The translations under genes were made by a program, and so were the position numbers. Below the pieces are notes generated by a model, which saw only the letters and a program-made list of their open reading frames with translations, was not told where the DNA came from and did not search any database. A DNA stretch of 63,897 nucleotides, the filler included, from Chlamydiia bacterium (GTDB lineage: Bacteria; Chlamydiota; Chlamydiia; Chlamydiales; FEN-1388), in the NCBI GenBank assembly GCA_903848235.1. It is 11 parts of 11 records of this genome, joined end to end, with 100 filler letters (N's around TTAATTAATTAA, not from the genome) between each part and the next. Parts side by side here need not be neighbours in the genome. Positions count along the whole stretch, not along the records: positions 58,782 to 61,516 come from CAINFV010000023.1; 10 more parts are not named here. One strand, 5' to 3'. This document shows, in pieces, positions 19,569-62,354 of this stretch (the stretch's first letter is position 1; the number at the start of each line of letters is the position of its first letter).

Positions 19569-19668
19569 NNNNNNNNNNNNNNNNNNNNNNNNNNNNNNNN
19601 NNNNNNNNNNNNTTAATTAATTAANNNNNNNNNNNNNNNNNNNNNNNNNNNNNNNNNNNNNNNNNNNN
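19569..19668. other. Artificial contig spacer (also 25467-25566, 37852-37951, 42658-42757, 49798-49897, 52359-52458, 55355-55454, 57036-57135, 58682-58781, 61517-61616)
   Basis: Identical 100-nt N-run/TTAATTAATTAA/N-run with stops in all six frames. Confidence 0.98.
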
Positions 19669-21960
19669 TGAGATATTGTCGAAAATATCATAATCCCGTC
19701 TCTCCGTCGGGGTAATGACAGCTCCATTGCGATCAACAGAGCTCGGGGAGACAACAGTGCGCACACGACTGTGCTCATCATATTCATAGGTCGTCGTCTG
19801 CCCGAAATGGTCCGTCATCGAGCGCATATTGCCTAATGAGTCATAGGTATACGACGTGGAGAGGAGAAGGCCGTCGCTGTGGTGATCCGTTTTTCTGATG
19901 AGTCTGTTGGCTTTGTCGTAATGAAATTTTGTATAGACGCCAGACCCTACACATTCTTCACGCGTTGTATTGAAATTGTCATCGTGCTCGTAGAGGAATT
20001 TTCGGCCTATGGCATCTGTCTTTTGGGTCAGCAGGTTTTTGCTGTCGTACTTCGAGTGAAGTGTATATCGAAGATGCTCGCGAGAGTCATACACCTCCTC
20101 TTTCTCCACAAGGCCTGCTTTGGTGTATGAATAGTCAATACGTTTGAGTTGATGCTCTTTTCCTGTAGCTACGTCAAGGTAGCACTCCGTGATACGGGCA
20201 GGCTGGCATACGCCATGGTCACATCTGTCACTAACGGGTTTGATATAGGTGATTTTTCGCTCTGTGACATCTGAAAGATGGGATTGATGGGTGCTCGAGC
20301 CATTGTCGATGATTTTCTTTACTACAACAGCGTCGTTATCATACTCAAAAAATTCTCGGATCTTGATGCGATGGCCGTCGTAGGTAAACTTTGCAGTCAG
20401 AAGATCTGTGCCGTCTTGGTATTCGTATTCGACCTTTGGGCCGTCATCTTCTTTTTGACATGTTTTGAGATGGAATTTGTCATTGGCGTACGAATATTGT
20501 TTGCTATACTGGTCAACATGATGCTTTTCAGGATGTCCATCATCAGAGACGTCAAATCGCTTCGTGTCTTCTCCGGTCAGATTTCCATAGACAATTTCTT
20601 TTATCACGTTTCCGCGGGAGTCGTATTCATAGCGTTCACAGAAAAGGGCCTTTCTATCATCGTCGAAGAGTGTTTTTGCTAAGAGATGCCCTTCATCGCT
20701 GTCATCGCGTTCGCCTCTATGTGTCGTCTCTTTTTTCCCCCAGAGGAGTCCTTCGCCTCGATAAAGGCTGCCTTTGTTCGAGTATGTATCGACACTTGTC
20801 AGCCGGTCTCTTGAAGAATAGCGATACACTGTTTTGCGGTCTTTGGCATCAAAGACTTCTGTCTTACGATCTTTTGGATGATAGACAAAGGTAAAAATCG
20901 TCTTCTCCTCGCCATCATGACCTACAGGAGCCTTTTGTTCTGTGACACGCCCTTTCTTATCATAAGAAATCTTCAAATAGCGGCCGTCAGGATGAGAGAT
21001 TTTTGACAGGTATCTCCGCCCATGGAAGGTGTCATAGGAGTATTGTGTCTTTGGCAGATCTGAGGCATGGACCTCTTCGAGGAAGGGTGACGTGCCGAAC
21101 ATCGTGTCATGATGCTGATCATACGAGTATGTCACTTCCCTTCCAGTGCTCGATGACACGGTGATTTTCTCGCGGCTGGTTTTGTAATCAAATTTTAGCC
21201 ATCCAAAGGTATGCTGGTGGCTGTGGTTGCACGCCTTGATTTCCTTCAGAAACCCTAAAATTTTTTTGTCCGAATAGTAATCGAAAGAAAGCTTTGTCCC
21301 ATCGGGTTTTGTTTCCCCTTTGATGTTCATAGCGTATTCGATGTTATCAGTCGAAAAGTACTCGCGCTCACCGCCATTGCTCAGCTGTGCCGTCCAGCCG
21401 GCTGTAATGTAGCGGCCCCTCTCCTTCGATTCTTTCCAGTGGCCCTTCAGCTTATAGTGGATGTTTTTTAGATTCGTCCGTGCGGAGATCTCCTCAGATG
21501 CATTGGTCATCCCTTTGTGAATAGTCTCTGGATCTAGATAGAACGACATCTCCTTCGTGTGCTCCACTTCAAAATCATGGAATTTGGAGACGCAGCACAC
21601 GATAGACCCACCTTCTTCATCAGCTGTCATGTAGGCATATTTTGCGTCTTCATCGATAGGAAGCCCTCGTATCCACAGAGGGTAGTTTGAGGTCATCCCA
21701 TTTCCTGGCACCCACGTTACACGCGGCAGCTGGCTGTTGTAATAGCGGATAATGGGAAGGGAATGAGGGCCTTCCGCTGGAATATCAACGCTTGCAAAGA
21801 GAAGGTTTCCGAAGATAGCGTTGACGTGATTGACGAATGAAGAGGGGGCTCCTGTGACAGTGACGGAGATTTCTTCTTTTCCCTGTTTGTAGCTATCAGA
21901 TGAGAAAAGGGTGAGTGGAGTGCAACAGAAAAGAAAGAGAAGCCTTAACACTAAGTGCAT
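19669..21960 (-). CDS. RHS/YD-repeat protein, N-terminal part (3'-truncated by contig end)
   Basis: Signal-like N-terminus, PIIRYYNS, and many YD repeats (YDKKGRV, YEYDSRGNV, YTYDSLGNM). Confidence 0.9.
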
Positions 21961-44090: not shown

Positions 44091-47000
44091 TCAGCGAAAA
44101 GGATTTAATGAATCAAGAAGAGCAGCAACGCCTGCGTAAACATCTTCATCCGATGATTCAAGTGGCCCATCAGAAGTTTGGCCAGTAAAGGGAGCAAGAG
44201 AACTGCGAATTCCGAAACCGCGTTTGCACGCGTTGTGCTTTGAAGTAGGTAATAATTTTGTAAGGCCATCAGCAAGCATATCAGCTGTCGAAATGTAAGA
44301 CACTGAGATGTTCCTGACACGAACATTGTAACGAACAAAATGATAAATAATTTCAATATGTTTAACAGCGCCATTTGTCAAAGGGTTCTGAGTTAATAAA
44401 ATGGCTGGCTGATTATCCATGTAAATATGTAACGGGCGAGAAGAAACCTGGCAGATATCAAGCAGGGAGGAAATGTAAAGCGCATTCCTGGTTGCAAGAT
44501 TGGCTGCGATATATTCGGACATAGTAGAAGAATTGGCCATAACCGTCTGACGACTCGCTGCCCAGTCAACAATGCCATTCGCTAGAATAAAGGCAACACC
44601 GGACACAGATCGACGATCATCACGATCATTTGCAAAACTCGCATCAGACCATCCAATAGGCACAAGGGATGTGCCAGAATAAACAATGCCATCATTAATT
44701 GTAGAGGAAAGATGGCGTATAACTTCAAGGGCGACGTGCCAATGCTTTGTGGTGGGGCACGCCATATATTTTGCCAGACTGTTAACAGCAAAGGCTAAAT
44801 CCGGCCTTGTGCAGTTCGTAAGATACAGAAGGGCACCAATAAGAGACGCATATTTGTAAATCTTTGTGTCCAATAACGGGGAACCATCGTCGCGCGCCAG
44901 TGACTCCGAGGGATCAATAGGGCAGCAGCGACGGGGGTGCTTATTATCAGCAAAAGGTAAAAATCGATCAACAACTTCTTGCGCGTAAACAGCCTGTGAA
45001 AGCATCAGAGTATGGTTCAGGCGATCGCGCGTAATCTTAAATCCAACAAATTTCTCAGCTTCCCCCATGTCCTTTGATTTGAATAATTTGAGAATATCTT
45101 GAACAGTTTCCTCAAATTCAGGAGAGGCAGTGCCAACAATAAGGCCATCGTCAACATAAAAGGGAACAAGAACTAAACCAGAAGAAATGTATTTGTAGTA
45201 AAGGCTCGGCTCTGCCTCAGACGACCGAAAACCAAGTGAGAGCATGGCCTGGTGCAGTGTTTCGTTCCACGCACGAGGCGCCTGCTTTAATCCATAAAGG
45301 GCTTTATTTAATTTCCAGACCCCATCAGTTTCGGGTCCAATACCAGCAGGGGGGAGAACATAAACCTCCTCATCAAGGACTCCATTCAAAAATGCAGTCT
45401 TAAAATCGATCTGACGAATTTCATATCCACGCGCACACGCAACAGCAAAGATAACTCGAATAGAAGTAAGGCGGGAAACATGAGCAAACGTCTCATCAAA
45501 ATCAATATATTTCTTTTGTTCAAAGCCACGCACTACAAAGCGTGCTTTCAGAGCAGTAATTAAACCATCCGGAGACTCCTTATACGTGTAAACCCAGCGA
45601 CAGGTCATGGGAACTCTACCTGGGGACATCTCGGACCGGGGAATATCAATAAAAACTCCCATTTCAAACAGCGATTTGTATTCTTCTTCCATGGCTAGAA
45701 TCCATCCATCGCAAAATTCATGCTTGCGCATTTTAGCCTCCGAATCAGGAACTGGTTGACACGATGCTACCCTTCGTCCAAGCCACGGGTCAGCGGACCC
45801 AAAAGGAAGGTTAGGATCCGTTCCACCAGGAAGGGCAGAGAAGGCAGAGGGCGATGAAAACAGAGTTTCACTTCCCGATGCGATTGAGATAGGGGAAGTA
45901 GGAATATCAAAAATAGGCAAAGGTGTAACACCCCCTGAGAAGTAGCTCGAGTGTTCTCCTGAAGTCCAGTAATGTGTGCACTCAAAAATATCGTCTTTCA
46001 TTTTTGTAAGCAGCGTTGAAGTTAAAGAGGGGGTAAAATAAACCGAGTAATCAATTTTGCGTCGTTCCGTTGACCGAAGCTGGTGTCCACCAACATTCAC
46101 CCCCTGATCAGCAGGTGAGGGCAACAAGGCAGTGGGAAACACTTTGTCAACAAGTAACGGGGCACTCGGCAGCGGCATCGACCAGGGATCCATTGTCGGG
46201 TGACTCGTGTAAGGCGCATTCGCGAATTCATCAGGGGTGTCATCAATAGTATCAGGCAGCGTGGACATGCCCTGTGTGTTCTTGGGTAAATCCGGAAGTA
46301 AAGTAGAAAATTGTTCATCAGTAAGGTGCTCGCGCAGGGGTGCCGAGGCGTCAAGTAATTCAAACATTTTATTATTGTAATACGGGAATTCATTTTCAAA
46401 AAATCTGCAGTCTGCAGTCCTAATAACGCGGATACGATTGCGGCCAAGTTTGGGATCATAATAAAGAATGCGATATCCCTTGCTGTTTGGTGCATAGCCC
46501 AAAAATACTCCAGAAAAGCTTGTCGAAGGAAGACCATCACTGCTGCGCAGTTTCAAGGCAATAAGTGCAAAAATACGGCAACCAAAAACACGAAGAATAG
46601 ACCCATCAGGTTTGAAGCCAGTAAATAATTCATAGGGGGTCATCTTCGTACGAGAATGAAAAGAAAAATTCTGCACAAAGGCAGCAGTGTTGATAGCCTC
46701 TGCCCAGAGATTCATAGGCAAGCTACTCGCGTACATACCACATCGCGCCTTTTCTTTCAGGGTTCGGATCATACGCTCGGCCGTTCCATTTGCCTCAGAG
46801 TTATAGCCTCCAGTGGTCTGTCGAACAATGCCTTGCGTGATAAAAAATGCATCAAGTTCCTTGTTGAGAAATTCGCCTCCATTGTCTGACCTAAAATTCT
46901 TCACGACATGTCGCTCTCCACCCTCAGATAGCTGGGTGTTGAACAACAAAATCGTGTCCATAAGTGCCTTCGCGGCTTCACTCTTATGCACCAAAAATTT

Positions 47001-48317
47001 AACAACAACATAACCAGAATAAAAATCCGTAATAACCATAAAATAATTGCTCCCACCTATGGAGCGTGGTGTAATAGGGCCAGCCAGGTCACCGCAAATT
47101 AAAGCACCGCGTGCATTAAATTTCAGGCGATCTGCTTGGGGATGTGTGCCCGTAACCATCTTGCAACGCGCACAGGTGATGCAAGGGCACGACCCCTCGG
47201 GGTAAAGAGGGACGGCAAATCCCTTTAATAATCCACCTTTCTCCAATTTTCGCAACGAGTCAGGTGACTGATACAGGAGCCGTGCATGCCAGAGTTTGTA
47301 AAGAATATATAAATCATGATTCGTGGCATTTCGGTAGTCCTCATTCCAACCAGGCGGTAAAAGCGATTTAGGAATTCGAGCGGACACAGGGAGAGCACTA
47401 TAAGCTTGCTGGACCCTTGTCTCAAAAGTAGGGGGAATATACGTTGTTGCCTTTAGTAAATAGGGATTTTTCAGCACCAATTTAATACGGTATAAACCAT
47501 GTACAGTGTCCATGTAGGTTACTCCAATTTCTTTGTCTCCTTTTGTAAGCATGCAATAACCATCCTCGTGATCAGTGTATCGCGTGCGTAATAAATTTTG
47601 TAATTGTCGAATTGATAACAAATCTGTGCCTAGTTTCTTCAAGTACAGCACATCTTTAATAATCAAATTATTTGCCAAGTGCAGGTCCCCAGTACCATCT
47701 GCCAAAATAACTGAATGATCGGCAATGGTAACACCTGGGGCATCTTGGGGTAAGAAAATCCTAAAATTAACTAAAATATCTTTGTTATTTGTCATGCAAC
47801 ATGACGCACCGGTGTCTATAATCGGCTCCCATGTCCATTCTTTTTCAAAATCCTTTCCACCATTTTCTATCGTAATTCTATACTCAGCTGTCGCCCGGAA
47901 AATCGAATGGGCAACAGCTCGACGCGTTTGAAAATCCACCGTACATACTGCACTATATATATTTAGTAAAAATTGACGGCCATTCATATGCGGCCTTGTG
48001 GAAAACACTGGTAACAAGTTGTTAATTCTGTCCAGCAGTTCTTTCTGTAATAATTCAAAACGAGAACCAAGTAGGCCTTTGCGTGCTGCAATAGATAGCT
48101 CACAAAGTGCGTAGTGTTGTACTTGTTCAATATTAAAAACTAATTTCTCCAAGCTAGCCAGCCGAGATCTGTGCTGCACGAGATCTTCCTCGGATGGCAT
48201 AATAAACGAAAAATCAGACGACGGTAAGTCAGGGGTCGCAAAATCAACCTGACCTACAAGGGCAGAGTGAATGACGGGGAAAATCACGCCAGCAGTCTGC
48301 CATTTTAATTCATGTAG
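44091..48317 (-). CDS. Copia-type Pol polyprotein
   Basis: Protease IIDTGAS; integrase GDLAGP/SDNGGEF/NGTAER; RT KARFVVRGF, QIDFKTAFLNG, YVDD; RNase H GWSDASFA, ADGLTK. Confidence 0.95.
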   Translation of the reverse strand, partial: LHELKWQTAGVIFPVIHSALVGQVDFATPDLPSSDFSFIMPSEEDLVQHRSRLASLEKLVFNIEQVQHYALCELSIAARKGLLGSRFELLQKELLDRINNLLPVFSTRPHMNGRQFLLNIYSAVCTVDFQTRRAVAHSIFRATAEYRITIENGGKDFEKEWTWEPIIDTGASCCMTNNKDILVNFRIFLPQDAPGVTIADHSVILADGTGDLHLANNLIIKDVLYLKKLGTDLLSIRQLQNLLRTRYTDHEDGYCMLTKGDKEIGVTYMDTVHGLYRIKLVLKNPYLLKATTYIPPTFETRVQQAYSALPVSARIPKSLLPPGWNEDYRNATNHDLYILYKLWHARLLYQSPDSLRKLEKGGLLKGFAVPLYPEGSCPCITCARCKMVTGTHPQADRLKFNARGALICGDLAGPITPRSIGGSNYFMVITDFYSGYVVVKFLVHKSEAAKALMDTILLFNTQLSEGGERHVVKNFRSDNGGEFLNKELDAFFITQGIVRQTTGGYNSEANGTAERMIRTLKEKARCGMYASSLPMNLWAEAINTAAFVQNFSFHSRTKMTPYELFTGFKPDGSILRVFGCRIFALIALKLRSSDGLPSTSFSGVFLGYAPNSKGYRILYYDPKLGRNRIRVIRTADCRFFENEFPYYNNKMFELLDASAPLREHLTDEQFSTLLPDLPKNTQGMSTLPDTIDDTPDEFANAPYTSHPTMDPWSMPLPSAPLLVDKVFPTALLPSPADQGVNVGGHQLRSTERRKIDYSVYFTPSLTSTLLTKMKDDIFECTHYWTSGEHSSYFSGGVTPLPIFDIPTSPISIASGSETLFSSPSAFSALPGGTDPNLPFGSADPWLGRRVASCQPVPDSEAKMRKHEFCDGWILAMEEEYKSLFEMGVFIDIPRSEMSPGRVPMTCRWVYTYKESPDGLITALKARFVVRGFEQKKYIDFDETFAHVSRLTSIRVIFAVACARGYEIRQIDFKTAFLNGVLDEEVYVLPPAGIGPETDGVWKLNKALYGLKQAPRAWNETLHQAMLSLGFRSSEAEPSLYYKYISSGLVLVPFYVDDGLIVGTASPEFEETVQDILKLFKSKDMGEAEKFVGFKITRDRLNHTLMLSQAVYAQEVVDRFLPFADNKHPRRCCPIDPSESLARDDGSPLLDTKIYKYASLIGALLYLTNCTRPDLAFAVNSLAKYMACPTTKHWHVALEVIRHLSSTINDGIVYSGTSLVPIGWSDASFANDRDDRRSVSGVAFILANGIVDWAASRQTVMANSSTMSEYIAANLATRNALYISSLLDICQVSSRPLHIYMDNQPAILLTQNPLTNGAVKHIEIIYHFVRYNVRVRNISVSYISTADMLADGLTKLLPTSKHNACKRGFGIRSSLAPFTGQTSDGPLESSDEDVYAGVAALLDSLNPFR

Positions 48318-57135: not shown

Positions 57136-57816
57136 AAACTTATATCCTTTCTGCTCCATGTACCAATCGAGATGATTGAGTGCGATGTTTGCAAGTAATG
57201 GTGAAATTACGCCGCCTTGTGGGGTGCCCCGTATAGTGGCTAGGAGCCTATTTTCTTCCATAACTCCAGACTTGAGAAACTTTTCAATCAGATTAAGGAT
57301 ATTTCCATCCGACATTTTGGCTGCTACCGACTTCATGATGAGTTCATGCGGAATATTATCAAAGAATCCTTTGATATCTGCATCAACTACATACCTGAAT
57401 TCCTGTCGAGCAAGCTCGAGCGTTCGCTCAACAGCTTGGTGGCAGTTTTTGTGTTGCCTAAAACCAAATGAGTTTTCATGAAAGACTTTTTCAAACGTTG
57501 GATTGATCAAGCGTCTTACGACTTCTTGTGCAATCCTGCATCGAACAGTAGGGATTCCTAAAGGACGAGTCTTCCCATCTCCTTTGGGGATATGAACTCG
57601 CTTTAGTGGCATTGGCTGAAACTTTCCAGTTTTCAACTCTTGCATTAGAGATTCGAGGTTTGTGACAAGATTTCTTTCATATTCTTGAATAGAAACTTTG
57701 TCAATTCCTGCTGAACCTTTGTTTCTCTTAACAGCTTTAAAGGCCTTAAGCATCAATTCAGAAGTGATTCTTCCCGTGAGGGAGTGAACTTTGAATTTGT
57801 CGTGAATTATTTTCAC
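57136..57816 (-). CDS. ltrA: Group II intron RT/maturase, partial
   Basis: GSAGID, RPLGIPT, SFGFR, VVDADIKGFFD, GTPQGGVISPLLAN. Confidence 0.92.
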
Positions 57817-58478
57817 AGAATGGTTACTCTTGGTGCCGTAACAATCGAATAACCTCTTGTAGGCTTCAGAGATGTTTTTAGGTATATGAAAACTTCATCT
57901 AAAGAGGGTGAATAAGCTTCTACAGTTATGATTTTCATGTCTAACGTTCTCCTTTACGAAGCCGTACTTCGATTATTTCTTCTATCGGTATGTCCTTTCG
58001 AGTTGCCTCTACTCCGGACATGCTGTAAACCCTTAGAGTAGAGCACTTGAGTTGGCTCTACAGCTATTCCATCATGGTTCCTTTCGAACTTCTTATAGAA
58101 CCATTTATCCACAAAGTGTGGAAGAATATGGGTTCTCACGGGTCAGTATGAACTGCCTTTTTCTCGAGGCGATGTCACCAGTCACCCACCAGGTTCCGCT
58201 CAGAGTATACGATTTATCTGAGGAGAAAACTTTCGTCCAGCGCTTCATCTAGAAATGGAGATTGGCGCACCTGGAAGGCCGTATCGTGGCACCTCCCTGA
58301 GTAGTGATATCTGGCTCCTTCGTCAGCATGAATTGCTTCATGTGCTAGCTGCTATCCTCTTTCGAGTTATGATATCACTTTCTGTACAGGACCGTACCCG
58401 CACAGGTAAGCTTCGGTGTATTATTTCATCTACATCCTCACTGTTTAAGACTTAGCTGTTCATACCTGCCGCTCGCGC
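57136..58478 (-). mobile_element. Group II intron copy 1 (5' part; cut by contig end)
   Basis: Near-identical to 59081..61051 copy over DI-DIII and the RT N-terminus; homology stops 9 nt into the 5' exon. Confidence 0.9.
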
Positions 58479-58681
58479 ATTTCTTTGTCGTCCACCAAAT
58501 TGACGTGCCACTGCAATAGCACTTTTTCCTTTGATGTACCGACTACTTCGGCCACGGATATTTTGGAGGTATTTTTATCAGCATATGCACATGATCCTGT
58601 ACCATATGTCCCTCCACAATTGTAGAGCTTCTTTGGGATGCCAATTCACGAAATACTGGTCCCAAAAATTTTCTCACATTC
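58479..58681 (-). pseudogene. tnpA: IS200/IS605 TnpA transposase fragment interrupted by the intron
   Basis: GHMVQDHVHMLIKIPPKY..AEVV.YIKGKSAIAVARQFGGRQR (HUH motif) with small frameshifts. Confidence 0.85.
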
Positions 58682-59038: not shown

Positions 59039-59080
59039 CGCAGTATGTGCCAAGACATGGGTTTTGATGTACACCATTAA

Positions 59081-61051
59081 GTGGGTAAGGGACAGAGTCG
59101 CCTCAGTCCCTCCCCGTTATCGCGATAAAGTTGATTCTTTATATTTACCGGCGAGCATCTTTCTTGCACCGGGCGATTCCAATAGAATTGTCCCTTGGAT
59201 AGGGAAATTGTTCAACACCGCATTCTTGCTCTTCCAAGGCTTACGCAGCTAAGCAATCCCAGCCGTTCAATGTGTTTGTTTCTAAATCTATAGTTGTCTG
59301 TCCTCCATTTTCGCTTGAATTTCATCGAGCGAATACGAGTTCTAATCCACTTATCGAGCTGTAAAAGTTGTTTCTTTACAGTACTAAATCCTGTGGCGAA
59401 GAAATTGACAGTACCACGTATGATCTGGTTTAGTCTCTTGATGACCTCTTGGTCTAGGTTTCGACTCCGGATAGTGTTCTTCCTAATCGTATCTTTAAAT
59501 TTCTCCATTGACTTCTCTCTTATTGTTATTCCTCTTGAGGAGATATGAAATCCTAAGAAATTGAAGCCTTCACAGAAACGACACAGTCGTGTCTTCTCTT
59601 GGCTAATTTCTAGGCTCATTTCTTCCAAAAGAGAACTGATAGAGTTCAATGCCTCTTTCGCCTGAGTTTTTGTCTTGCAGAGGATAACCAGGTCATCCGC
59701 ATAGCGGACAAACCTATATCCTTTCTGCTCCATGTGCCAATCAAGATGGTTGAGCACAATGTTTGCAAGTAATGGTGAAATAACTCCGCCCTGCGGAGTG
59801 CCCCGTATAGTAGCTAGGAGCCTATTTTCTTCCATAACTCCAGACTTGAGAAACTTTTCAATCAGATTGAGGATGTTCCCATCCGAGATTTTAGCTGCTA
59901 CCGAATCCATGATGAGTTCATGCGGAATATTATCAAAGAATCCTTTGATATCTGCATCAACTACATGTCTGAATCCCTGTTGGGCAAGCTCGAGCGTTTG
60001 TTCAACAGCTTGGTGGCAGTTTCTGTGTTGCCTAAAACCAAATGAGTTTTCATGAAAGACTTTTTCAAACGTAGGGTTGATCAAGCGTCTTACAACCTCT
60101 TGCGCAATCCTGCATCGAACAGTAGGGATTCCTAAAGGTCGAGTCTTTCCGTCTCCTTTCGGGATATTGACTCGCTTTAGTGGCATCGGCTGAAACTTTC
60201 CAGTTTTCAACTCTTGCTTCAGAGATTCGAGGTTTGAAACAAGGTCTCTTTCATATTCTTGAATCGTGACTTTGTCAATTCCAGCTGAACCTCTGTTTCT
60301 CTTAACGGCTTTAAATGCCTTGAGCATCAATTCAGAAGTGATCCTCCCTGTAAGGGAGTGAGTTTTGAATTTGTCGTGAATTATTTTCACAGAATGGTTA
60401 CTCCTGGTGCAGTAACAATCGGATAACCTCTTGTAGGCTTCAGAGATGTTTTTAGGTATATGAAAACTTCATCTAAAGAGGGTGAATAAGCTTCTGCAGT
60501 TATGATTTTCATGTCTAACGTTCTCCTTTGCGAAGCCGTGCTTCGGTTATTTCTTCTATCGGTATGTCCTTTCGAGTTGCCTCTACTCCGGACATGCTGT
60601 GAACCCCTAGAGTAGAGCATTGAAGTTTGCTCTACAGCTATTCCATCATGGTTCCTTTCGAACTTCTTATAGAACCATTTATCCACGGGTGTGGAAGAAT
60701 ATGGGTTCTCACGGGTCAGTATGAACTGCCTTTTTCTCGAGGCGATGTCACCAGTCACCCACCAGGTTCTTCCCAGAATATACGATCGATCTGAGGAGAA
60801 AACTTTCGTTCGGCGCTTCATCAAGAAATGGAGATTGGCGCACCTGGAAGGCCGTATCGTGGCACCTCCCTGAGTAGTGATATCTGGCTCCTTCGTCAGC
60901 ATGAGTTGCCTCATGTGCTAGCTGCTATCCTCTTTCGAGTTATGATATCACTTTCTGTACAGAACCGTATCCGCACAGGTAAGCTTCGGTGTATTATTTC
61001 ATCTACATCCTCACTGTTTAAGACTTAGCTGTTCATACCTGCCGCTCGCGC
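59081..61051 (-). mobile_element. Group II intron copy 2, complete (1971 nt)
   Basis: 5' GCGCG; DI closing stem GUAUGAAC/GUUCAUAC; EBS1 AUUUCU; DIV stem CCGAUAGAA/UUCUAUUGG; DV-like CGC triad; DVI GGGGAGGGAC..GUCCCUU-A-CCC-AC 3' end. Confidence 0.9.
59212..60390 (-). CDS. ltrA: Group II intron RT/maturase without endonuclease domain
   Basis: RT0-7 with YADD, FNFLGF, and X domain (LNQIIRGTVNFF); 392 aa; no HNH domain. Confidence 0.95.
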   Translation of the reverse strand: MKIIHDKFKTHSLTGRITSELMLKAFKAVKRNRGSAGIDKVTIQEYERDLVSNLESLKQELKTGKFQPMPLKRVNIPKGDGKTRPLGIPTVRCRIAQEVVRRLINPTFEKVFHENSFGFRQHRNCHQAVEQTLELAQQGFRHVVDADIKGFFDNIPHELIMDSVAAKISDGNILNLIEKFLKSGVMEENRLLATIRGTPQGGVISPLLANIVLNHLDWHMEQKGYRFVRYADDLVILCKTKTQAKEALNSISSLLEEMSLEISQEKTRLCRFCEGFNFLGFHISSRGITIREKSMEKFKDTIRKNTIRSRNLDQEVIKRLNQIIRGTVNFFATGFSTVKKQLLQLDKWIRTRIRSMKFKRKWRTDNYRFRNKHIERLGLLSCVSLGRARMRC

Positions 61052-61516
61052 ATTTCTTTGATTTCTTCAAGTTTTTGAGGATAAGCAAAAGTGAAAGTTT
61101 TTTGGAATGTCTCTGGAGAAATGCGTTTCCAAGCCTCTGCAAGAGGAGTCATTCCCTCATTTCTATTAAAATTCAAAAGTAGTTTTTTTCGTTGTTCATC
61201 AGACATGGATTCGAGAAGAATTTTTACATTATTCTCTTGTAGGGGTTTGTGCTTTTGGTCGAGAGCCTCTGAAGCAAGAGTATAAAGATCCTCCTCTCGT
61301 AACCGAGAAAGTTCTTCAATAACATATGCGGTTTCGGACCAAAGTTTTTCTTTCTGTTCTAGATAGGGATTGGATTGTTCAGGTTTTGGCGTACATTTCT
61401 GTATAATCATTTCTAACATGGTTCTCTCGCTTTCTGTGAGAGACCGTCGTAGAAAATCCTGTGCCTTTTGTTTCAATAATATCAATTGATCAAGATCTTC
61501 TTTTGAAAACGATTGT
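61052..61516 (-). CDS. Hypothetical protein (5' exon of intron copy 2; 5'-truncated)
   Basis: ORF runs into the intron. Predicted splicing gives ...EEIKEI-stop using exon 2 (TTAA at 59077-59080). Confidence 0.6.
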
Positions 61517-61616: not shown

Positions 61617-62354
61617 ATGGGATTGGGTCGAGGATTTATCCATCCGTTCACAACGTTGGAAGATAATGCAGGTCGCCTCGTTGGTTTGCGCCGCGATATC
61701 TGTAACGGTGATTTCTCTAAGATTTCGAATGCCTCTAGACAAGACATTGCGAACTTTACCTGTGCGCGGGCTGGGGAAGTAGCAGGAATGGGTGCGGCAG
61801 GTTACTTCGCTGCAAAGGCGGCCTTCGAATTGGCCTATGGGGTAGGCACACGTATTGTCGCCAATGTGCTCAGTAGGGGTTGTTTCAAAAATACGTGTAC
61901 GGGGATGGTAGAGAGTCGAGTGGCTATCGCTGCTGAGGCGAGGTTTGCGACAGTGGGTGAATCCGTTGTTGCGTCAGAAAGAAGTATCGCAAAAGTTGGG
62001 ATCGACAATGCAACTGTAGCGACTAGGGTTGACACATGTATTGTGAAAAGAGAGTATCTGAAACGATTCGCCCCGGCCTCAAAATTAAGGGAACAACATT
62101 TTCTTGACGGCCATCAGTTCCCTGGAAAATCAGGAAAAACAGCCTTTCCCGAATCTTGGGGAAAAGATAAAATTATTGGTCACGTTAATGACGTCGCCCA
62201 GGATTCTGGGAGCGCTTGGCGCGTCGCCCCTGAAAGAAGGTGCGCATCCAGCCTTCGAAGATATTGTATTGAAGGCACGCGAGAGAACGTCAATGTGAGA
62301 GTTATTGTCGAGCCAAGAGGAGAAGGCATTATTACCTCGTATCCTCCCCGATAA
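61617..62354 (+). CDS. Polymorphic toxin C-terminus with EndoU-like domain, variant 2
   Basis: First 174 nt homologous to 49934..50107; HFLDGHQFPGKSGKTAFPESW..DKI...VRVIVEP...IITSYP. Confidence 0.83.
   Translation: MGLGRGFIHPFTTLEDNAGRLVGLRRDICNGDFSKISNASRQDIANFTCARAGEVAGMGAAGYFAAKAAFELAYGVGTRIVANVLSRGCFKNTCTGMVESRVAIAAEARFATVGESVVASERSIAKVGIDNATVATRVDTCIVKREYLKRFAPASKLREQHFLDGHQFPGKSGKTAFPESWGKDKIIGHVNDVAQDSGSAWRVAPERRCASSLRRYCIEGTRENVNVRVIVEPRGEGIITSYPPR

Follow-up and report, generated by a model that had tools for sequence, protein, structure and literature searches.

The window, a stretch of 63,897 nucleotides made up of contigs of a Chlamydiia bacterium joined by spacers, carries a group II intron in which the catalytic domain V is interrupted by an additional hairpin arm. 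From the sequences compared here, it is likely that this intron belongs to a group II variant whose hallmark is a conserved three-way junction at the catalytic site, connected in the manner of the spliceosomal U2/U6 core, and which has been mobile in the recent past. A canonical domain V is an uninterrupted hairpin of approximately 34 nucleotides, in which the triad, AGC or CGC, is located 5 bp from a 2-nt bulge. An earlier sequence-only reading of the window had proposed that an insert has turned this hairpin into a three-way junction. That proposal is extended here by the match to helix Ib, the ISL and helix II of U2/U6, by the CU 3′ end and by the proposed targeting through EBS1 alone.

Features of the Intron

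The complete intron of the window (copy 2) is carried on contig C23 (58782-61516) and its features are collected in Table 1. In relatives, tandem copies and empty sites establish the same intron ends. The intron-encoded protein scores 399 bits against TIGR04416, for which the cutoff is 300.

Table 1. Features of the two intron copies in the window
Feature	Position	Strand	Remarks
Complete group II intron, copy 2	59080..61051	(-)	1,972 nt; 5′ end GCGCG, 3′ end ACCCACU; ends from both window copies and relatives
IBS1 AGAAAU, last six 5′ exon bases	61052..61057	(-)	6/6 pairs with EBS1
Probable epsilon-prime AAGC	60983..60986	(-)	Tentative
Delta nucleotide C (60830) and EBS1 AUUUCU (60829-60824)	60824..60830	(-)	In domain I loop
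J2/3 linker AGC	60596..60598	(-)	Invariant in 17/17; gamma A, then two bases expected in triples with the triad
Domain III, stem with conserved purine-rich internal loop	60562..60595	(-)	Putative assignment from consensus fold and covariation, alignment columns 601-665
Intron-encoded protein, 392 aa	59212..60390	(-)	RT (YADD) and maturase, no endonuclease domain; RVT_1, GIIM
Domain V basal helix, 5′ strand AUCGC	59173..59177	(-)	Contains catalytic triad CGC (59175-59173)
Domain V upper stem, ISL-like part	59148..59172	(-)	Five pairs CCGGU/GCCGG, 2-nt bulge UC (59154-59153), short stem and loop
24-nt insert	59124..59147	(-)	Linker UAAAU (59147-59143), 6-bp stem AUAAAG/CUUUAU (59142-59137 with 59130-59125), loop AAUCAA, one spacer C
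Domain V basal helix, 3′ strand GCGAU	59119..59123	(-)	Watson-Crick partner of the triad; then AAC
Domain VI	59083..59115	(-)	Branch point is a bulged A (59086), seven bases from the end
Terminal dinucleotide CU instead of the usual AY	59080..59081	(-)	Invariant in 17/17; boundary from tandem copies and empty sites
Copy 1: 5′ RNA and first 227 codons of the protein	57136..58478	(-)	Cut by contig end
5′ exon of copy 1	58479..58681	(-)	Frameshifted IS200-type transposase remnant (Y1_Tnp, E 2e-7)

Group II introns usually start with GUGYG and end in AY. Members of the present lineage start with GYGYG, a loose fit to GUGYG, and end in ACCCNCU; the terminal CU occurs in the main clade and in most of the sister clade, and the 3′ end of locus L011 is AU. 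A 3′ end at the adjacent AC, with the bulged A at -6, was considered and rejected, as the next U is invariant and the empty sites fit the CU end alone. The bulged A is located at -7 in 16/17 introns, and pairing in domain VI is 100%, 4 of its 10 pairs having changed on both sides.

By analogy with other group II introns, the first base of the J2/3 linker would be the gamma A that partners the terminal U, and the next two bases would form triples with the triad. The gamma-gamma′ pair is consistent with the data; as the J2/3 A and the terminal U are both invariant in the 17 introns, the pair is one that covariation cannot test. The epsilon-prime G accompanies a C at intron position 4 in the window intron, L007 and L010, and AAUC is found opposite U4 in 13/17.

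The sequence-only reading had also pointed to a second, diverged copy at another site, and had noted that this copy is without its 3′ end. Both points are borne out: copy 1 runs into the end of its contig and is 93.4% identical to copy 2, with 38 synonymous and 17 non-synonymous codon changes. The last nine bases of the 5′ exon are identical between the two copies. A further copy of approximately 99% identity occurs in an unrelated assembly from another sequencing run. It spans 59079-60258 with three differences, none of them in domain V, and the insert is thus not an assembly error. In run X1, from another sample, a near-identical copy breaks off at window position 61041, ten bases in from the intron's 5′ end, into foreign sequence.

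A Three-Way Junction in Domain V

The minus-strand sequence that the sequence-only reading gave for domain V, its insert and the partner strand is exact. The minimum-energy fold predicted for the window domain V is a three-way junction; single-sequence folding did not differ significantly from shuffles (z = -1.0 for domain V, z = -0.45 for the insert). In an alignment of 17 sequences, 98.2% of the cells pair overall. Pairing is 100% in the insert stem, where 5/6 pairs have changed on both sides, and 96% in the upper stem of domain V, where 6/9 pairs have done so; in the triad helix, both-sided changes affect 3/5 pairs. These covariation values were reached by 0 of 500 shuffles, in a test that is inflated by the kinship of the sequences and that took its structure from the window sequence, and pairing fell to approximately 50% when the partners were slid. 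An unconstrained consensus fold yields the same three-way structure. The three-way junction and the spacing of the triad (CGC, 5 bp, 2-nt bulge), both of which had been read from the window alone, are confirmed by this covariation, and the insert is conserved in the 3′ regions of the closest homologues, where the reading had advised that it be sought.

The G of the triad, which had been expected to pair with C in the window, does so in 26/26 distinct sequences, unlike the G-U found in canonical relatives with GUU partners. The triad and its partner switch jointly, being CGC/GCG in 24/26 and AGC/GCU in 2/26 of these sequences. The compensatory changes in the basal helix are AU/GC at its base, UA/CG, and CG/AU at the first triad base, with a further one in L011. 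In the main subclade, the insert is 24 nt long in 25/26 distinct sequences, the linker UAAAU is retained in 23/26, and the closing G-C pair is invariant. The pairing probability of the triad helix is 0.75-1.0 in 15/17 introns; the isolated 3′ regions of the other two (L009 and L082) favour another fold in which the triad helix is lost.

The UC bulge is present in the window as described, but it is not a trait of the lineage, in which the bulge is AC in 21, AU in 3 and UC in 2 of 26 distinct sequences. C occupies intron position 4 (window position 61048) in both introns whose bulge is UC (window position 59154; L010), the others having U together with an AC bulge. This correlation amounts to one event in the tree and is only a hint. 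A single potassium ion is shared by U4 and A376 in a class C structure (PMC3964913; this and the other papers given by PMC number are cited from excerpts).

Two members depart from the common pattern at the triad. The most divergent, L011, has the triad AAC with a central A-U pair (L011:2057-2162), and a degenerate copy, L192 (G101:C3), has UGC/GCA as a compensatory change in the triad helix, with the arm partly broken.

Distribution and Phylogeny

Two scans, each returning the best 80 of about 600 matches, led to 158 loci that encode relatives of the window protein. At a protein identity of at least 55%, the arm is present in 21/26 loci; a further 4 end at a contig edge before the arm and 1 is a partial match, the downstream domain V of which (L215, genome G105) also has the arm. 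The insert, which in the window is seen only once, is therefore a trait of the clade, and the reservation attached to it by the sequence-only reading is removed. Below 44% identity, domain V is canonical in 110/130 loci and gave no call in 20/130, with the arm in 0/130. Among members for which the 3′ end is sequenced, no case of arm loss was observed.

In a sister subclade, at 44-48% identity, the arm is longer, at about 10 pairs, and occupies the same position, and the break is found one pair further up. In this long form, one pair lies below and four lie above the break, between the triad and the bulge, and 7 pairs of the arm show changes on both sides in 6 sequences. All proteins of introns with the insert group in a single clade, with an SH-aLRT of 97 in IQ-TREE and a support of 0.95 in FastTree, and in both trees this clade is separate from the class C references and from canonical sister groups. 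The IQ-TREE analysis was a quick search of 62 rows with a midpoint root and no bootstraps, and the FastTree analysis used 143 of 176 rows, the rows having been thinned for redundancy and length. The loci L005 and L091, which contain internal stops, were left out of the protein profile. It is probable, as far as these proteins and RNAs can tell, that domain V was rebuilt once as a three-way junction, in the common ancestor of a mobile lineage without an endonuclease.

The family is not small, since at least 120 database proteins are at least 64% identical to the window protein. Genomes that carry it are rare, with 2/101 relatives of the host and 3/151 genomes of one phylum sample. Members were found in PVC bacteria, Nitrospinota, Gemmatimonadota and unassigned metagenomes. 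Viral contigs gave no pattern match and no close protein among the 80 best loci, the best being 44% identical over a part; among 432 plasmid records, 0 reached 60% identity and the best listed were at 38-42%.

Target Recognition and Mobility

Over 17 introns, EBS1 and IBS1 pair at 98/102 positions, compared with a permutation mean of 52 and a best value of 75 in 10,000 permutations, and in L023 and L002 the two have changed together. EBS2 was not detected, as no search window beat the permutation maximum beyond position -9. The first base of the 3′ exon varies among near-identical copies. Joined-exon junctions were found elsewhere in the collected loci only at the exact boundary, for 12/33 filled sites, with 0 at offsets of 1 or 2. 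A six-base EBS1 with a free 3′ exon base would represent a new target-site rule. Repeated palindromes are the site of many insertions (L181-L213, L080, L081, L094, L101); the intron sits where their 3′ arm ends, and IBS1 is part of that arm. Such target hairpins are common in the lineage but absent at the window intron, L009 and L010. In genome G102, L211 and L213 are head-to-tail tandem copies with the new copy at the 5′ junction of the old, and both intron ends are shown directly. A free first base in the 3′ exon is what permits tandem insertion of this kind.

There are 15 matches in genome G101, 17 in G102 and 13 in G103. The full-length copies compared in these three genomes are 98.2-100% identical, apart from one at 94%, and near-identical full-length copies lie in different flanks on long contigs. 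Matches to the long form number 30 in G136, 12 in G226, 4 in G413 and 4 in G269; one long-form copy in G136 (L256) is interrupted inside domain V by another element. By a strict test, the protein is intact in 12/13 copies in G103, 10/13 in G101 and 1/11 in G102, and by another test 5/7 matches in G102 are without internal stops. Splice joints and lariats were not found in four sequencing runs, of which a raw-read run gave 0 aligned reads and the sole RNA run had no coverage of domain V.

The earlier suggestion that the lineage has been mobile is upheld by the 13-17 matches in each of three genomes and the 30 in G136, by the covariation of EBS1 and IBS1 and by the exact empty sites. Insertion by reverse splicing requires the element's own active site. 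Since the near-identical copies are recent, the split domain V would have been catalytic recently and the ribozyme, to go by its copies, must have been active.

Place Among Group II Introns

The lineage has the features of group II introns: an RT and maturase encoded within the RNA, a triad followed by five pairs and a 2-nt bulge, a bulged A, and EBS1-IBS1 pairing. It does not fit the Rfam model RF00029, which describes an uninterrupted hairpin with G-U at the triad. The Rfam search that had been suggested for the window was run and gave no match to a group II family there; the Rfam group II families likewise matched 0/8 member loci and 3/3 controls. Published surveys, which name protein varieties such as class F, g1-g6 and U1-U3, have required a recognised domain V (Miura et al. 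2022, PMC8919778; PMC3552965), and because Miura et al. required the Rfam domain V model (PMC8919778), their survey would miss the lineage. Surveys based on this model thus miss a whole family, with up to 30 copies per genome.

The nearest solved structures are the class C (IIC) maturases 7uim and GsI-IIC 6ar1. Class C introns are characterised by the lack of EBS2, by insertion behind a stem-loop and by IBS3-EBS3 pairing. Like class C, the lineage has an RT and maturase without an En domain, mostly a CGC triad, five pairs from triad to bulge, and AGC in J2/3; no EBS2 was detected and many insertions, though not those of the window intron, L009 and L010, are at DNA hairpins. Unlike class C, it forms a protein clade of its own in both trees, at about 40% identity to three class C references that were assigned from a CGC-type sequence or an integron site. 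Its 5′ RNA of about 660 nt, six-base EBS1, arm-broken domain V, G-C pair at the triad and CU end also set it apart, as does the free first base of the 3′ exon, and its IBS1 is often inside the hairpin arm and not after it. Recognition through EBS1, EBS2 and EBS3, as in IIB introns (classes B, D, E, F and CL), was not observed, EBS1 alone being found.

A conserved extra stem-loop is also a feature of the “domain VII” introns of class B (the B.c.I4 group) and of CL1 introns with 5′ insertions. Their position is behind domain VI or close to the 5′ end, and the excerpted accounts describe none in domain V (PMC9294222, PMC4028801). The circularly permuted introns of Roth et al. 2021 (PMC8637638) are likewise a natural bacterial variant with an altered base of domain V; they keep domain V as one hairpin, whereas the present lineage has the normal domain order and a split helix.

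The G2L reverse transcriptases have a maturase domain with no recognised domain V, and a very different ribozyme was allowed for in their case (Simon and Zimmerly 2008, PMC2602772). The motif is YVDD in G2L3, YIDD in G2L4 and DN in G2L5, which in addition is extended by a long N-terminal part (PMC4244168, PMC2602772), whereas the window protein has YADD and 392 aa. Identity with G2L3-G2L5 was rejected on the basis of the YADD motif, the full intron RNA and a score that passes the group II maturase cutoff. The intron c-Ku.st.I1 (432 aa, 2,018 nt), which was compared by its description, is an unlikely member, because it groups with class F (PMC3552965) and because Kuenenia introns of like size gave a 153-nt Rfam match to domains V-VI (PMC8919778) and members of the lineage give none. 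A length of 153 nt is that of a canonical domain V and a long domain VI, as in L113.

A full-text literature search, judged mostly by titles and the start of abstracts, found no described domain V insertion of this kind. The motifs of the lineage were not found in a search of the supplements of PMC3552965, PMC4244168 and PMC8919778, which give names. Some sequences without recognised boundaries were held to be introns of new classes, then unpublished (PMC4028801). A description in subscription journals, in intron-database drawings or in supplements would be somewhat surprising, though a real chance of it exists.

Proposed Role of the Arm

All nucleotides by which known introns hold the two metals belong either to the 5′ strand, unbroken here, or to the bulge (PMC6294511). 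The spacing of these nucleotides is kept in the lineage: there is no interruption in the 5′ strand between the triad, the five pairs that follow and the 2-nt bulge, and it is the 3′ strand that is broken just above the triad. The basal and upper helices would stack across the break, allowing the triad, the bulge and J2/3 to form the usual triple helix and two-metal site, with the side arm pointing off the catalytic face. The conserved linker and loop adenines may dock on another RNA domain or on the maturase, in which case the arm would act as a strut for the split helix and the nearby domain VI. The intron would splice as a lariat and reverse-splice into DNA at targets chosen by about six EBS1 bases alone, often in the 3′ arm of repeated palindromes.

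The arm probably makes a contact of its own with RNA or maturase, as is suggested by its constant length, its linker rich in A and its conserved loop. No convincing pairing partner for the arm loop, the linker or J5/6 was found in domains I-III of 13 sequences. The best candidate, a conserved GGUU at alignment column 392, was rejected; it allows 46/52 pairings, of which 30 are Watson-Crick, and shows no covariation.

The arm could instead be a tolerated passenger, that is, an old insertion at one harmless spot that is kept paired to avoid misfolding and makes no contact. Its length and loop differ between the two subclades and no pairing partner was found for it, both of which would fit this idea, and the U2 pairing in helix Ib is dispensable in yeast (PMC6294511), so this face of the helix tolerates change. 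A passenger would not, however, be expected to hold the same length, linker and closing pair across proteins that are only 55-65% identical, nor to be lost from no member with a sequenced 3′ end, and such a role is unlikely. If the arm were a small domain in its own right, with a shortened domain V on one side and domain VI on the other, the triad would be unpaired or paired elsewhere. The triad A of circularly permuted introns is indeed without a Watson-Crick partner (PMC8637638), and L009 and L082, folded in isolation, are without the triad helix. The compensatory changes in the basal helix, seen also in L192 and L011, and the high pairing probabilities of the remaining introns make this arrangement extremely improbable. 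It is harder still to believe that the ribozyme is crippled and that its copies were moved with the help of other introns or are repeats of assembly. Splicing is predicted here from sequence and some copies encode broken proteins, but the near-identical copies sit in different flanks on long contigs, their ends are exact, the exon tracks EBS1, and reverse splicing in general needs the element's own active site.

Comparison with the Spliceosomal U2/U6 Core

In U2, the strand that partners the triad leads on into the branch helix, of which it forms the 5′ strand. The 3′ end of U6 and the 5′ end of U2 come together in helix II, and the triad pairs with U2 in helix Ib, where U6 G60 pairs with U2 C22 and C61 stacks on A62 (PMC6294511). 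The ISL is formed by U6 63-84 and helix II by 93-102 (PMC5855946), and in the active form helix I, the ISL and helix II meet in a three-helix junction (PMC7297123). A 2015 review described the strand break as a perplexing difference that separates the spliceosome from group II introns.

The lineage has a U2/U6-like three-helix junction with Watson-Crick triad pairs at the level of secondary structure. As in U2/U6, the catalytic strand is continuous, the partner strand is broken just above the triad with a side helix at the break, the triad G is in a Watson-Crick G-C pair, and the partner strand runs on to the branch helix. In connectivity the junction equals helix Ib, ISL and helix II, except that a loop closes the end of helix II that is open in U2/U6. 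The existence of a mobile lineage with a split catalytic helix shows that this helix tolerates the very break found in the spliceosome.

The two systems differ in several respects. U2/U6 consists of two RNAs in trans, whereas the lineage is one RNA in cis, with its own RT, in a bacterial retroelement. It is without helix Ia, having two further pairs and AAC instead, and without the ACAGAGA box. Its linker is 5 nt long, compared with about 8 in yeast U6 (85-92; PMC5855946), and its intron ends are GYGYG...CU as opposed to GU...AG. Prp8 was not among the best 60 of 72 structure matches of the protein profile. On the strength of these differences, the U2/U6 layout is taken here to have been reached independently, convergence being likelier than ancestry. 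Convergence would be easy, as there are few ways to interrupt the helix without touching the catalytic strand.

Shared ancestry would mean that the lineage comes from the intron stock that was cut into U6 and U2. The arm would then be the homologue and forerunner of helix II, and the opening of its loop would be the cut that separated a U6-like from a U2-like RNA. The position of the break, the Watson-Crick G-C at the triad and the strand order through to the branch helix are shared with U2/U6; the AGC/GCU combination occurs in 2/26 sequences, and the fragmentation of an intron into snRNAs is a standing hypothesis (PMC5709842). Against this stand the missing helix Ia, the shorter linker, the different ends, the mostly CGC triad and the lack of Prp8 among the matches listed, as well as the ease of convergence and the occurrence of members so far in PVC bacteria, Nitrospinota, Gemmatimonadota and unassigned metagenomes. 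Common descent is accordingly rated as very unlikely. The same low rating applies to the proposal that a cut in the loop would yield a U6-like piece (triad, ISL and helix II strand) and a U2-like piece (helix II, triad-partner and branch-helix strands) capable of trans-splicing, and that the lineage is a living relative of the ancestor of the spliceosome. For a convergent intron cut at the arm loop, there is not quite an even chance that it would still splice and so model the separation of U6 and U2. The lineage makes it testable whether an RNA-only or RT-assisted ribozyme works with the U2/U6 junction, and whether one opened loop gives functional U6-like and U2-like RNAs.

Other Elements in the Window and Host Genome

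On contig C13, window positions 44091-48287 (-) hold an ORF of 1,398 aa with RVT_2, retroviral SH3, Pol beta-barrel and integrase domains, corresponding to the pol of a Copia-type retrotransposon. A Copia-type pol in a bacterial bin suggests that contig C13 is eukaryotic; its GC content is 45%, compared with 47% for the genome. An RHS-repeat protein is encoded at 19621-21960 (-), and the protein encoded at 61617-62354 (+) carries a bacterial EndoU nuclease domain at its C terminus. Proteins of these two kinds are typical of polymorphic toxin systems that act between bacteria. Elsewhere in the host genome (G000), contigs C82, C34 and C217 carry unrelated group II introns with a canonical domain V.
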